A DNA stretch of 64,000 nt from Patescibacteria group bacterium (GCA_023474215.1 JAMCYI010000016.1:8265-72264), one strand, 5' to 3'. Counted from the first letter of the stretch, positions 13,609 through 17,732 are shown. The notes: a model not told the origin generated them from the letters alone. Translations and numbers: made by a program.

Positions 13609-15006
13609 ATGACCAAGAAAAGGACATTTTCGCTTTTTGCTTGCGCGCTCCTCGTTCTGGGCGCGTGGTTTTTCAACGCACACGCTGAAACTGCTTCCTC
13701 GACCGCAGCAGCTCCGACAGCGACTTCGACCGCCACGACGACCGACACTCAAGCTGAACGGGCAGCCTTGGAAGCGCAGCTTGCAGATCTCGAGAATCAA
13801 ATCGAAGAGCAGCAACAGCAGATCAGCAAATACCAAGCCCAAGGCAGCACGTTGAGCGGTGAGATCAAATATCTCAATTCAAAAATCTCCCAGATCAATC
13901 TCCAAATAAAAGCGGTCAACTTGAAACTCACGCAGCTTTCGAGCGACATCACGGACACCCAAAGCCAAATAAACCAAACTGAGAATCAAATCAACGTCAA
14001 CAAGGATGCTCTTGCGTCATCGATCCAAGCCATTTACGAAAGTGACAATCAAAATCTCTTGGAGATTCTCCTTGCCAACAACAATCTCTCCGACTTCTTT
14101 TCGAATGTCGATAACATCATTCTGGCCCAAAGCAATATGCGGGATGAATTGGACCAAATACAAAAATTGAGAGATCAGCTTGTGGCCCAGCAGCAAACGC
14201 TGACGGGTGAACTTTCCGACACCCAAAACTTCAAGAGCATTCAAACCGCGCAAAAGTCGTCTCTTCAAACAACGCAAAGCCAAAAAACCACCCTCTTAAA
14301 ACAAACGAAAGGCCAAGAGGCCGCTTATCAAAAAATCCTCGCGAAGACCAAAGAAACGGCGGCTCAAATACGGAACCGCATCTTCCAGCTCTTGGGCGGC
14401 GGACAATTGACCTTCCAACAGGCATACAACTACGCAAAGCTCGCCGAAGGAGCGACCGGCGTTCGAGCTGCGCTCATTCTCGCCATTTTGAACCGCGAGT
14501 CCGCCTTGGGACAAAACGTCGGAAAATGCTCGTATACCACGGCAATGAACCCCACCCGCGACGTGCCGGTATTTTTGAAACTCCTTCAGTCCCTCAACAT
14601 CGACCCGAATTCGCAATCCGCATACGTTTCTTGCCCGAACTCCGACGGCGCGTACGGCGGAGCCATGGGACCGGCTCAATTCATACCATCGACGTGGAAT
14701 TTGTACGCATCTCAAATTTCGCAGATCACGGGCGACAATCCCGCAAACCCTTGGAACAATTCCGACGCGTTCGTTGCGACGGGGCTTCTTATGAAGGATC
14801 TTCTCTCATCCGCAAGCTGCGTAAGTTATGCCAAGGCAAATCAAAGCGTCGCTCCCTACCAAACGCTTCTCGAACGGTGTGCAGCAGCCAAGTATTACGC
14901 GGGCGGCAACTGGTATACGTACCGCTTCTGGTACGGCCAGCCGGTCGTCGATCAGGCAAACAGCTACCAGAATGACATCGACGTCTTGAACAGCCAAGGG
15001 AGCTAG
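13609..15006 (+). CDS. secreted coiled-coil protein with C-terminal lytic-transglycosylase (SLT)-like domain
   Basis: ATG at 13609 preceded by aggaag; signal peptide MTKKRTFSLFACALLVLGAWFFNAHA; Q-rich coiled coil; C-terminal ILNRESALGQ (catalytic E-S) and GPAQFIPSTW resemble SLT-domain motifs. ORF track starts at upstream TTG 13591. Confidence 0.55.
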   Translation: MTKKRTFSLFACALLVLGAWFFNAHAETASSTAAAPTATSTATTTDTQAERAALEAQLADLENQIEEQQQQISKYQAQGSTLSGEIKYLNSKISQINLQIKAVNLKLTQLSSDITDTQSQINQTENQINVNKDALASSIQAIYESDNQNLLEILLANNNLSDFFSNVDNIILAQSNMRDELDQIQKLRDQLVAQQQTLTGELSDTQNFKSIQTAQKSSLQTTQSQKTTLLKQTKGQEAAYQKILAKTKETAAQIRNRIFQLLGGGQLTFQQAYNYAKLAEGATGVRAALILAILNRESALGQNVGKCSYTTAMNPTRDVPVFLKLLQSLNIDPNSQSAYVSCPNSDGAYGGAMGPAQFIPSTWNLYASQISQITGDNPANPWNNSDAFVATGLLMKDLLSSASCVSYAKANQSVAPYQTLLERCAAAKYYAGGNWYTYRFWYGQPVVDQANSYQNDIDVLNSQGS

Positions 15007-15023
15007 CTGACGAGTGTTCTTTT

Positions 15024-15137
15024 CTACCGGCACCGGGCGTTCGCTTGCCCCAGCGGCAAGCACCGCCCTGCGCTCTCGGCGAAAAATCCGCCTCCTCGGC
15101 GGAACCAATCTTTTTCGCCTCCGAGAGCTGCCGCACG
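15024..15137 (+). repeat. 114-bp GC-rich structured repeat, copy 1 (nested in the loop of hairpin gctgacgagtg/cactcgtcagc at 15006-15016 / 15144-15154)
   Basis: Near-identical (1 mismatch) inverted copy at 17599-17712; contains internal nested hairpins (gcttgcc/ggcaagc; ggcgaaaaa/tttttcgcc). Confidence 0.8.
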
Positions 15138-15315
15138 AAAAAACACTCGTCAGCTACATTATTACTTTATTAATAAAGAAGTGATTTCTGCATTTTGAAC
15201 AAACCGTTTCGAAAACCGAGCGGGCACGGTTCGAGCGGAGCGAGAGAGCGAGGTTGAGAACGAGCGCGGTTTTCTCGCAGGGAAGACCGACGCGTGTTTG
15301 CGAGAAATGCAGAAA

Positions 15316-16047
15316 TCACTTCGCGAAGGCTTTCACGATGGGGTCAAAATCCCCTTCCATGATCTTTTCGATATTGTGGAATTTCTTCCCGATCCGATGA
15401 TCGGTGATCCGGTCTTCGGGGAAATTATAGGTCCGTATTTTTTCCGATCGGTCGCCTGAACCGATCTGAGCGCGGCGCAATTCATCGATCGATCCGGTCG
15501 CTTTCAATTGCTCAATTTCATAAAGTTTTGCCCGCAAGATTTCCATTGCCTTCTCGCGATTCGCATGCTGGAATCGCTCCGAGCGGCACGAGACAACGAT
15601 ACCCGTCGGCTTGTGAAGGATGCGGACAGCCGTTTCCACTTTGTTCACATTCTGGCCGCCGGGGCCGCCTGCCCGGGAAAAAGTGACCTCCAGATCGCTT
15701 TCTTTTATTTCAACCGCTTTTGCTTCAACGATTGGCAGAACCGCAACGGACGCCGTTGATGTGTGAATCCTCCCCTGCCGCTCAGTGACCGGAACCCGCT
15801 GTACGCGGTGAACACCCGATTCCTGCCGTAAGGCATCGTACACACCCTGACCGCCCATTTCCGCGATCAAAGTCTTATATCCTCTCGCTCCCGATTCGGA
15901 AGCATCGAGAATGGAAAACGTCCATCCCTTCTTTGCCGCATATTTTTGGTACATACGCGCCAAATCACCCGCGAAAAGCGATGCTTCGTCGCCGCCCGTA
16001 CCCGCACGAACCTCCAGAATGATTTTTTTAATGTCTTGGGATTCCAT
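15316..16047 (-). CDS. prfA: class I peptide chain release factor, RF1-type, lacking N-terminal domain 1
   Basis: 243 aa; GGQ motif ([22 protein letters not shown]), PxT-type tripeptide (RVPVTE), aligns from about residue 100 of E. coli RF1. In-frame TAG 15 nt upstream of the ATG leaves no room for domain 1. Confidence 0.75.
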
Positions 16048-16109
16048 AATAAATAGATTCTACCCGAAAAAATGCCAAAGCTCAAAGTTCAAATTTGACA
16101 TTCGGTCAT

Positions 16110-16667
16110 TTACCCTATTTTCTCGTACAGAAAAACCCGATGCCAACCAATATCCGTCGAATCAATGAGGCGGAAGGTGTGATCGTCCTCCGGGATTCTG
16201 AACGACGGTGATATGATCTTGGAACCTTGTTTCATTTTTAAAAACTCGGTCGAAGCCAGCTTTTTCATTGTTTCCGGGGAAGTATAGACATAAAAGACGT
16301 TTGCCTCCTCGAAAACGTCGCTGGGAATGCCAAAAATGCTTTTCCGTTCGATCCGCACTTTGTTCCCTGCGCCGACGAAGCGTATCCACAGCTTTGACTT
16401 CGCATATGGCCACCACGAGATCTCGTAGCCGATCCCGGCGCGGACGCCGAAACGACGCACCGCCTCAAAAAGTACTCTGCCATCCCCCGACCCGAAATCG
16501 AAAACGACGTCCTGTGAGCCAAGGTTTCCCCACTCCAATATGCGGCGCATTGCTTTCCGTTCGATGGGGACGTACGGCGCACCGGCGCGCTGTGAATAAA
16601 TGAGCGACGCAAGGAGAAAAACAAGTGCCGCGATGAGGATCGCATTGAGAGCGATGAGGATCGCCAT
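16110..16667 (-). CDS. membrane-anchored class I SAM-dependent methyltransferase
   Basis: 185 aa; N-terminal TM helix then VVFDFGSGDGRVLFEAV (motif I). Confidence 0.55.
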   Translation of the reverse strand: MAILIALNAILIAALVFLLASLIYSQRAGAPYVPIERKAMRRILEWGNLGSQDVVFDFGSGDGRVLFEAVRRFGVRAGIGYEISWWPYAKSKLWIRFVGAGNKVRIERKSIFGIPSDVFEEANVFYVYTSPETMKKLASTEFLKMKQGSKIISPSFRIPEDDHTFRLIDSTDIGWHRVFLYEKIG

Positions 16668-17554
16668 TATTGTTTGTAGAACAATTTCATCCTTGCCCCG
16701 ATGACCGCCTTCATTCCTTCGATCGCCGCCGGCATGATCTTATACGGAGCAACTTCATCCGGCTTTTCTTCCAATCCGCGTTCGACGCCTTTCCGCCATG
16801 CGACCCTGATTTCGGTCGAAATGTGGACGATGGTGATGCCTGCGTCGATTGCCGCCGTGAAATCCTCATCGACGGTACCACTCCCCCCGTGGAGCACCAA
16901 GGGAACCTTTGTTGCATCTTTGATCGCTTTGATGCGCTGGATGTCGAGCCGAGGATCGTGGCCGCCGCGAAACATTCCATGGACGTTCCCGACGGCAGGT
17001 GCGAGCATATCGACGCGCGTCTCGGAAACAAAACGGGCGGCGTCTTCCGGTTTTGTAAGAGCGTCGGGCGAAAGCGCCGCGCCTTCCGGGATCTTGTCCC
17101 ACATTTCTGAATCCGACCCAATATACCCCATTTCACCCTCCACGACGAGCGCAGGATTGATGCTTTTGAGCATTTTCACGACTTCCCCGGTTTGCTTGAT
17201 GTCTTCGTCAAGCGGCAACTTTCCGCCGTCGAAAAGCACTTCGTCGAAACCAGCGGATGCCGCTTCTTTTGCAAGCGCTGGATCGTGCGTATGGTCGGCA
17301 TTCAAAAAGAGCCAAAATCCCCCGTCGTTTTCCTTATCCCCGTACTCTTCATTGTAGCTTGTAAGAAGATCATGGACCTGCTTGACGCCCAAGTATTTCC
17401 GCTCCCCCTCCGAAACGCCAATCAAGACCGGCAAATCCAATTCCCGCGCGGTTTCGGCAACCGCCTTGAATTGCTCGTAGCCCGCAATGTTGAAATGCGG
17501 TACCGCAACTCTCTTTTTTTCCGCCCATTGGAGGGTATTCAATAAATTCCTCAT
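16667..17554 (-). CDS. fba: class II fructose-bisphosphate aldolase
   Basis: 295 aa; VPHFNIAGYEQ, HGGSG, and metal-binding His pattern of class II FBA/tagatose-bisphosphate aldolase family. Confidence 0.8.
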   Translation of the reverse strand: MRNLLNTLQWAEKKRVAVPHFNIAGYEQFKAVAETARELDLPVLIGVSEGERKYLGVKQVHDLLTSYNEEYGDKENDGGFWLFLNADHTHDPALAKEAASAGFDEVLFDGGKLPLDEDIKQTGEVVKMLKSINPALVVEGEMGYIGSDSEMWDKIPEGAALSPDALTKPEDAARFVSETRVDMLAPAVGNVHGMFRGGHDPRLDIQRIKAIKDATKVPLVLHGGSGTVDEDFTAAIDAGITIVHISTEIRVAWRKGVERGLEEKPDEVAPYKIMPAAIEGMKAVIGARMKLFYKQ

Positions 17555-17598
17555 CTCTTCATTATATTACAACAAAATAAGGAACGGGAGTTTCTTTC

Positions 17599-17712
17599 CG
17601 TGCGGCAGCTCTCGGAGGCGAAAAAGATTGGTTCCGCCGAGGAGGCGGATTTTTCGCCGAGAGCGCAGGGCGGTGCTTGCCGCTGGAGCAAGCGAACGCC
17701 CGGTGCCGGTAG
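17599..17712 (-). repeat. 114-bp GC-rich structured repeat, copy 2 (inverted; nested in hairpin ggaacggga/tcccgttcc at 17581-17589 / 17722-17730)
   Basis: Reverse complement of 15024-15137 with one mismatch. Confidence 0.8.
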
Positions 17713-17732
17713 GGAAGGAATTCCCGTTCCGC

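Follow-up and report, generated by a model that had tools for sequence, protein, structure and literature searches.

Why does a 114-bp GC-rich repeat stand in two inverted copies around a 2.5-kb segment that holds a prfA, a methyltransferase and an fba gene? The stretch in question, called the window here, is 64 kb of DNA from a Patescibacteria group bacterium (GCA_023474215.1), and its repeat, family A (copy 1, W1; copy 2, W2), had been taken in a sequence-only reading for a possible inversion substrate, an element inserted into terminator hairpin loops, or part of a conserved RNA structure. Family A was previously undescribed, and together with a second element, family B, it is a new family of structured intergenic repeats resembling repetitive extragenic palindromes (REPs) and bacterial interspersed mosaic elements (BIMEs), or miniature inverted-repeat transposable elements (MITEs). 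We put at about an even chance the reading that A units are REP/BIME-like structured terminator modules and not an inversion switch.

The inverted pair and its family

A repeat search of the window returned inverted arms of 130 nt at 15019-15148 and 17588-17717 that are 95% complementary. Pairwise alignment of the 114-nt cores within them (Table 1) agreed with the earlier description of reverse-complement copies with one mismatch, the sole difference lying at 15049 (C in copy 1, T in copy 2). Beyond the cores the similarity fades through an 8-bp pyrimidine/purine stretch (TTCTTTTC/GAAAAAAC vs TTCCTTCC/GGAAAGAA) and is then gone. A 21-mer of the core has exactly two occurrences in the window, where 100 shuffles predict 0. 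Both copies are predicted to fold very stably (copy 1, -87.5 kcal/mol, z = -10.2; copy 2, -78.9 kcal/mol, z = -7.0), and an equally stable fold was reached by 0 of 200 shuffles. The internal helices that had been named, gcttgcc/ggcaagc and gctctcggcgaaaaa/tttttcgcc..gagagc enclosing tccgcc/ggcgga, are all present in the minimum-free-energy fold. The enclosing helices (gctgacgagtg/cactcgtcagc and ggaacggga/tcccgttcc) are present too and do differ in sequence between the copies, but they are longer than the 9-11 bp first ascribed to them, reaching ~20 bp in copy 1 and ~16 bp with bulges in copy 2.

Both copies, each with its own flanks, were also found in GCA_023380715.1 (an NCBI metagenome-assembled genome, MAG), ERZ27237177 (ENA) and SRR10278331 (Logan), and the ENA and Logan contigs end within the repeat, as they would at a true repeat. 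Since copies with distinct flanks recur in independent assemblies, an assembly duplication is not the cause of the pair. The repeat is also not limited to these two copies, as further loci exist in other genomes (the loci compared are numbered L001-L053). When one genome per species was scanned for exact patterns, true A copies turned up at five loci: the same locus as in the window in the species representative (L007), two further loci of the same species in the same MAG (L004 and L019; WY2.bin70, JAKAGX01), with cores that match the window copies at 82-84% identity, another in a MAG that bears the label Saccharibacteria (L005) and the last in a Minisyncoccia MAG (L022, with L022-24 listed together as copies). 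A diverged copy, L025A, stands in the syntenic relative L025. A metagenome scan re-found the L022 locus and nothing else, and a covariance model of family A (R1), run on ~0.5 Mb of related loci, gave no further divergent copies; a match of 22.6 bits at L021 was judged unrelated to A. The copy number is 2 in the window and, by exact-pattern scan, at least 3 in one same-species MAG; in all, 6-7 independent loci of the family are known, from four or more Patescibacteria genomes. No A copies were found in viral contigs, phage records or plasmid records, and no autonomous insertion sequence (IS) with A ends was seen in the ~0.5 Mb of related sequence. Rfam, a scan of which the sequence-only reading had suggested, holds no family that matches the element, either at gathering thresholds or up to E = 10. 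ARAGORN called no tRNA or tmRNA in the element, and nothing specific was found in the literature on repeats of the candidate phyla radiation (CPR) or on hairpin-loop repeats.

The inverted arrangement itself might suggest that recombination between the copies flips the fba-methyltransferase-prfA segment as a switch, and in principle inverted repeats of 114 bp, 99% identical and 2.4 kb apart, are a substrate for RecA. The proposed inversion found no support in ~12 syntenic loci, nine of which span the pair (L001-L003, L007, L025-L027, L030, L031) while three cover the fba-prfA region in part (L028, L029, L032). The order and orientation of the genes (417-aa ORF, fba, methyltransferase, prfA, then SLT) are the same in 9/9 spanning loci, L002 having the window orientation across the whole segment, and the partial loci agree where they are covered. 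The close strain L007 has one copy only, and no recombinase gene is adjacent, the neighbours being metabolic or translation genes. The two sites hold an unrelated AT-rich repeat in L030, also inverted, with each copy just past a stop codon, which indicates that repeat orientation tracks gene direction: the two A copies are inverted because each caps the 3' end of one of two convergently oriented genes. A module of A followed by B in the prfA-SLT spacer does have opposite orientations in the window and in L025, which may reflect independent acquisition or local inversion. A switch is very improbable.

A conserved core in a variable helix at gene 3' ends

One fold is shared by 7/7 independent copies of A. 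Its outer helix of 9-20 bp is present in every copy and unrelated in sequence from locus to locus. Inside it follow a small internal loop, a 5-bp closing helix (CGGCA/UGCCG, GGAA/UUCC or AGCA/UGCU), a hairpin P2 whose stem varies (GCTTGC, CTTTCGC, CTCCGCT, GCGGTGC) under a constant loop YCCRGCG, and a hairpin P3 (GCTCTCGGCGAAAAATCCGCC-loop-GGCGGAACCRAKCTTTTTCGCCTCCGAGAGC) of 56 nt that is almost sequence-invariant across genomes and dissimilar to P2. Covariation was tested on 12 distinct A sequences, with slid partners and 500 shuffles as controls. The cells of the fold are paired in 96.4% of cases, and two-sided changes occur at 10 pairs, against 1-3 with slid partners (1/500 shuffles). Eight covarying pairs lie in P2; in P3, 17 of the 21 pairs never vary and none shows a two-sided change. 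Such invariance of P3 would imply either a sequence-specific constraint or a very recent spread.

The margins of the element are less regular. Its 5' ends read CTAC, TCTC or CTAG with no conserved flanking tetranucleotide, the core ends are ragged (e.g. at the L019 3' end), no motif common to the A flanks was found, and no direct repeat flanks W1, W2, L004, L019, L022 or L025A. W1 and L025A share the outer-helix arms AGCTGACG/CGTCAGCT with a compensated 4-bp indel. Outer helices are thus passed on normally and at an ordinary rate, and since this helix is shared by the two, fast helix drift cannot account for the difference between W1 and W2. A hammerhead motif suggested by CUGACGAG in the copy 1 arm was rejected, as it is absent from the other copies and has no Rfam match.

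The gene labels of the segment stand by Pfam, with PCRF and RF-1 domains for prfA, class II F_bP_aldolase for fba and a weak DOT1 match (E = 2.7e-5) for the methyltransferase-like gene. As the sequence-only reading had held, both window copies are sense to the flanking genes, directly 3' of the stops TAG 15004-15006 and TGA 17733-17735. The element is sense and flush with a stop codon (overlapping, abutting or within 5 nt) at four loci, namely W1, W2, L004 and L025A, and stands in a convergent context in L005. Its neighbours across loci are unrelated genes (SLT/prfA, unknown/fba, S10/L3, patatin/uvrC, Nramp/hisS), and a gene-specific cis-regulator is therefore unlikely. U-rich tails follow the outer helix in W2 (TTATTTTGTTG), L025A (TTCTTTTATTTT) and L004 (TTGATTTTAA); the 10 nt past the stem contain 6-8 U in these three copies and 5 in W1. 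The strand complementary to P3 has the sequence of a canonical terminator (TCCGCC-loop-GGCGGA and TTTTT), which a consensus scan called in both window copies. As far as sequence can tell, the units have the anatomy of an intrinsic terminator, a predicted stable stem with a U-rich tract past the stop codon, and the internal hairpin with T5 on the other strand resembles a bidirectional one. They differ from ordinary terminators in that a conserved branched domain of 114 nt takes the place of the sense hairpin's "loop"; those of the relatives have 7-8-bp stems, 3-4-nt loops and no conserved sequence.

On the terminator-module reading, the unit would serve as a bidirectional terminator or 3'-end module, in which the outer helix and U tail would stop sense transcription and the P3 hairpin with T5 would stop antisense or convergent transcription. 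A trans-acting factor would read P3, and probably also the P2 loop, sequence-specifically. The units are dispersed and polymorphic in the manner of REPs and BIMEs, often paired with B in a fixed A-to-B arrangement.

Family B supplies the second type of unit. In the window it forms an A-to-B tandem module with copy 1, and it stands beside A in the same order and orientation in the S10-L3 spacer (L019) and in the prfA/SLT spacer of L025. It occurs without A in L004 and L048-50, and in L005 an A unit is nested in a variable internal hairpin of B. The outer helix differs from one B copy to the next and often overlaps a stop codon. The reverse strand of B, called B prime, has the sense of the gene with the abutting stop at 7/7 loci examined. 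B prime has a covarying stem under the loop CCRGCG, the hexamer of A's P2 loop. Because of this shared design (variable outer helix, covarying stem with CCRGCG), A and B prime look like analogous modules.

The same features bear on the alternative that A is a functional structured RNA, a 3'-UTR element or small RNA with the outer helix as a covarying P1, which would protect mRNA 3' ends or bind a protein through the YCCRGCG loop and P3, its copies being paralogous RNA genes or cis elements. The strong covariation seen in P2 and in the closing helix, the conservation of loops and junctions, the compensated changes that keep P1 (the 4-bp indel on both arms among them), the sense position directly past a stop codon at 4/7 loci, the constant sense of B prime and its common loop, and several non-Watson-Crick pairs of the outer helix that are G-U on the locally transcribed strand all argue for it. 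Rfam, the unrelated neighbours and the two loci at which A is antisense (below) argue against it, as do the free loss or swapping of the element between strains that are 96-99.7% identical, P2 population variants that include A-C mismatches on the transcribed strand, and the lack of room for a promoter of its own. We regard this role as unlikely. From the RNA-structure alternative of the sequence-only reading there remains a conserved structured element with covarying internal helices and an outer helix that is always present; a single dedicated RNA gene or cis-regulator is what falls away.

REPs, BIMEs and REP-associated tyrosine transposases (RAYTs) have been described (PMC2817692, PMC3333891, PMC3116915). 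Like REPs and BIMEs, A units are GC-rich, structured, extragenic and multi-copy, stand at gene 3' ends in transcribed spacers, and show concerted evolution and strain polymorphism. BIMEs are mosaics of two unit types with fixed relative orientation and variable linkers, comparable to the A-to-B module. REPs are simple imperfect palindromes of 20-40 nt, whereas the A core is branched and ~114 nt long; REPINs are conserved throughout, whereas A is conserved inside and variable in its outer helix. The copy number of A is low in the sequence scanned (2 in 64 kb); REPs or REPINs number tens to hundreds per genome. A has no conserved 5' tetranucleotide and does not flank the RAYT-like gene of the window.

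Among bacterial MITEs, Correia/NEMIS, ERIC/IRU, RUP and BOX act as terminators or RNA hairpins. They resemble A in being intergenic, strongly folded elements of 100-150 bp that are co-transcribed, have proposed effects on termination or RNA processing, and are polymorphic for presence. In MITEs the terminal inverted repeats are conserved from copy to copy, and target-site duplications are present. The architecture of A is the reverse, a conserved branched core within a locus-specific helix: the terminal helix differs at every locus while the centre is conserved, and the arms differ completely even between copies with 99-100% identical cores. No target-site duplication was found at A copies; the sole direct repeat seen, ATTTCTC, bounds a deletion in a B unit.

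Table 1. Positions of the A copies, the B element and adjoining features (window coordinates unless a locus is named)
Feature	Position	Strand	Remarks
Copy 1 outer helix, 5' arm	15004..15023	+	begins with TAG stop 15004-15006 of SLT_2-domain gene 13591-15006
Copy 1 A core	15024..15137	+	R1 covariance score 132.1 bits
Copy 1 closing helix	15028-15032/15129-15133	+
Copy 1 hairpin P2	15035-15068	+	loop CCCAGCG; contains variable position 15049
Copy 1 hairpin P3	15072-15128	+
Terminator-like hairpin TCCGCC-GAGGA-GGCGGA, then TTTTT	15087..15103	-	antisense to copy 1 core; faces prfA-side transcription unit
Copy 1 outer helix, 3' arm	15138..15156	+	followed by A/U-rich spacer 15157-15177
Family B element, nested hairpins	15178..15322	-	B prime strand, sense to prfA
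B outer helix GAAGTGATTTCTGCA...	15178-15204/15296-15322		overlaps prfA stop 15316-15318
B GC-rich core	~15205-15295
Other B copies	L019:4384-4528; L025:~5945-6104; L004:~6378-6520; L048:~1830-1967; L046:~2423-2564
prfA	15316-16047	-
Methyltransferase-like gene	16110-16667	-
fba	16667-17554	-
TATAAT	17561-17566	-	between U-rich tail and fba start codon 17552-17554
U-rich tail TTATTTTGTTG	~17570-17580	-	downstream of copy 2 outer helix
Copy 2 outer helix, 3' arm (element sense)	17581..17598	-
Copy 2 A core	17599..17712	-	132.2 bits; identical to copy 1 core of strains L002 and L007
Terminator-like hairpin with T5	17633..17649	+	antisense strand of copy 2 core
Copy 2 outer helix, 5' arm	17713..17730	-	2 nt after TGA 17733-17735 of 417-aa ORF 17733-18986

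Turnover between strains and the origin of copy 2

Close relatives differ in which unit they carry. L025 and L026 are 99.7% identical over 8.5 kb, and their prfA-SLT spacers measure 309 nt (A and B) vs 92 nt, the shorter having two ordinary small terminator hairpins; the sequences part five codons inside prfA. L031 has no spacer at all, the stop codons overlapping, and L030 has other repeats. L007 matches the window in blocks of 94-97% identity and has copy 1 and B; at its copy 2 site stands an AT-rich hairpin element whose orthologue is found in the more distant L029, so copy 2 is derived in the window strain. The tract replaced at that site runs from the stop codon through fba codon 3. In the patatin-uvrC spacer, alleles from one sample (ERZ27236928) carry either A or B prime (L048-L050 vs L004/L051-L053); both have the same downstream U-rich tail, and of the helix they share only the base GCGA/TCGC. 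The site is a case of "cassette" exchange between alleles, the cassettes being terminator-like units. At the S10-L3 spacer, A is present in 11/11 strains whose S10 protein is identical, and other elements stand there in relatives whose S10 is 90-98% identical. In this spacer, L046:2319-3027 and L047:695-1262 differ by a 141-nt indel comprising the B prime core and 3' arm. A 7-nt direct repeat, ATTTCTC, stands at its two ends, and the "empty" allele retains the 5' arm, which together are the signature of a hairpin-associated slippage deletion and not of an empty target. These two spacers also carry another long structured element.

Gene conversion keeps paralogous A cores alike. At the S10 site, the core of L019/L036/L042 and that of L033 show 4 clustered differences; at all 4 the former agrees with the patatin-site paralogue in the same MAG, one of them being a G-to-A that breaks a pair. 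In other strains the S10-site and patatin-site paralogues are ~6% different. In L004 and L019 the cores are accordingly 99-100% identical within one genome and sit in unrelated helices. Because conversion halts where homology ends, as at the divergent L019 3' end, identical cores inside unrelated helices can be explained, and with conversion directly visible such cores need not mean core-only transposition. W2 differs from the ancestral W1 at 0/114 core positions and ~3/18 positions of the proximal helix, a pattern that fits conversion in the window as well. To explain how copy 2 arrived, either import of a unit or insertion of a core is still required; the long stretch of higher divergence that an import tract by homologous recombination would leave was not seen around it.

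A core-only mobile element of ~105-114 nt that is excised or copied and inserts into pre-existing hairpin loops, with the outer helix as host sequence, would explain much of this differently. It would account for an outer helix that is present in every copy with locus-specific sequence, for same-genome cores of 99-100% identity in unrelated helices (W1/W2; L004/L019), for the contrast between core and proximal helix in W2, for the recent arrival of copy 2, for the A core within the loop of B's variable internal hairpin in L005, and for the patatin alleles that share GCGA/TCGC and the U tail. A precedent exists, since IS1397 and ISKpn1 insert into palindromic units and IS621 and ISPpu9 into REPs, their ends flanked by host palindrome arms (PMC1525189). 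The geometry is that of A cores; those elements are protein-coding, 1-1.5 kb long and have defined ends, whereas the A core is non-coding and no filled/empty pair with the hairpin kept was found for it. A search for empty sites at four loci gave no allele with an intact outer hairpin minus the core: three sites (fba-upstream, prfA/SLT, patatin-uvrC) do have A-less alleles, and 0 of these keep the outer hairpin. Replaced tracts take in flanking codons, the sole clean indel is the deletion between direct repeats, the L019 3' end is ragged, the L004/L019 identity comes demonstrably from gene conversion, and the patatin alleles have just 4 bp in common.

The enzyme for such insertion could be a structure-recognising one such as the Y1/HUH homologue of the window (ORF 37784-38542, minus strand, 252 aa). 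Its product matches Pfam Y1_Tnp (IS200-like) with 31.6 bits against a cut-off of 23 and the NCBIfam REP-tyrosine-transposase model with 37 bits, below that model's cut-off, and has the motifs HUH (HFHLLL) and YxxHxNP (YYIHTNP). Directly upstream (38584-38677) lie REP-like hairpins, GCCCCCCGCTCTCC..GGAGACCGGGGGGC then AAATCTGTGGATAA, and GCCCCCCGCTCTCC hairpins recur in two other spacers (30010-30103, 35351-35392). The gene and its hairpins have, by sequence, the classical RAYT and REP arrangement in a CPR genome, a likeness to REP/REPIN-RAYT systems. The repeats that flank the gene are these hairpins and not A or B, and they are its likelier substrate, which counts against a role in A insertion. 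IS200/IS605 elements have subterminal hairpins at both ends, which one TnpA recognises, and insert 3' of a short, fixed target of 4-5 nt, not into hairpin loops. Imperfect DNA hairpins read by a Y1/HUH enzyme are a point in common; the unrelatedness of P2 and P3 and the lack of a conserved target motif beside A copies are points of difference. The suggestion of an IS200/IS605-style insertion thus found no support: no intact empty hairpin was found, close strains swap whole units with codons or lose one between direct repeats, and the core ends are ragged. We consider core insertion into loops doubtful. Also unlikely is a wider form in which A and B cores would be mobile modules of a new, non-coding kind that settle specifically in hairpin loops, those of intrinsic terminators among them, with host arms becoming the outer helix. 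A structure-specific enzyme, possibly a Y1/HUH transposase, would then recognise the invariant P3 and the CCRGCG loop, A or B prime may compete for the same terminator, and modules may nest, as in L005.

Several points weigh against the terminator-module reading. At 2/7 loci (S10-L3 and Nramp-hisS) A is antisense to both neighbours and stands behind another terminator hairpin. The terminator role is deduced from anatomy, and the comparison of G-U with A-C pairs is mixed, with no consistent strand signal. A terminator would have no need of an invariant 56-nt P3, so that a sequence-specific partner must be postulated, to which the invariant P3 and the loop motif common to A and B would point. 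The L005 core in the loop of a hairpin within B and the patatin alleles sharing GCGA/TCGC hint at loop insertion; no donor unit with the GGAACGGGA helix was found for copy 2, and import followed by conversion makes two events of its origin, where core insertion would need one. Finally, the known loci number only ~7 and the related sequence searched only ~0.5 Mb.

CPR genomes are small and usually thought repeat-poor. The lineage studied here has hypervariable spacers at gene 3' ends, full of several families of structured elements that are swapped between near-identical strains and gene-converted. If A units are terminators, they offer a handle on transcription-unit boundaries in organisms not culturable alone; if cores enter hairpin loops, this would be a new mode of insertion. 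A repeats break short-read assemblies and are usable as strain markers.

Neighbouring genes and other repeats

The S10-L3 spacer (L019:4102-4587, L033-L042) puts 486 nt between rpsJ and rplC, in the order terminator hairpin, B prime, antisense A and a promoter-like site (TTGACA-17 nt-TACTAT), and the S10 operon appears, from this predicted layout, to be split there. L3 in the L019/L033-L042 lineage has only 139 aa. A split gene or intron was rejected as the cause of the gap, as the N-terminus of this L3 is normal and only junk ORFs cross the elements.

The release-factor-like ORF labelled prfA encodes 243 aa, with PCRF profile positions 96-194 only and RF-1, the N-terminal domain being missing; the same length was found in all relatives. 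In three lineages whose spacers are unrelated, a TATAAT precedes the fba ATG by 6 nt (window 17552-17566, L007:~3045-3060, L030:~9985-10003), a placement that may mean a leaderless fba mRNA.

Other repeats are frequent in these spacers. AT-rich palindromic elements of the AAATCCTAA... and TTTTCAATTTTTAATTTGAAATT... types occur at window 19003-19122 and 22358-22485, L007:3042-3150 and L029:~835-925, and it is one of these that occupies the copy 2 site in L007 and L029. The AT-rich repeat of L030, TGCCAAAGCTCAAATGACG..., has its inverted copies at L030:9880-10000 and 12306-12416, at the same two sites as the window pair, and in the window a partial copy of it (16055-16105) stands in the gap from prfA to the methyltransferase gene. 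Between the same two genes in L007 (L007:1503-1600) there is another repeat of 98 nt, which recurs at window 55535-55632.

At the start of the window (1-980) lies a 23S rRNA fragment whose 980 nt cover model positions 1-648, leaving ~330 nt extra; an inverted repeat (473-501/722-750) brackets 220 nt of it, and together these suggest an insertion or intron. The 16S gene (10810-12277) is ~9.8 kb from the 23S, and the interval holds two tRNAs, a gene for a PCMT methyltransferase and type IV pilus genes, three of them pilin paralogues. Farther along, window 47162-53380 holds tandem glycosyltransferase paralogues (GT1, GT8) with internal repeats that are 85-100% identical.

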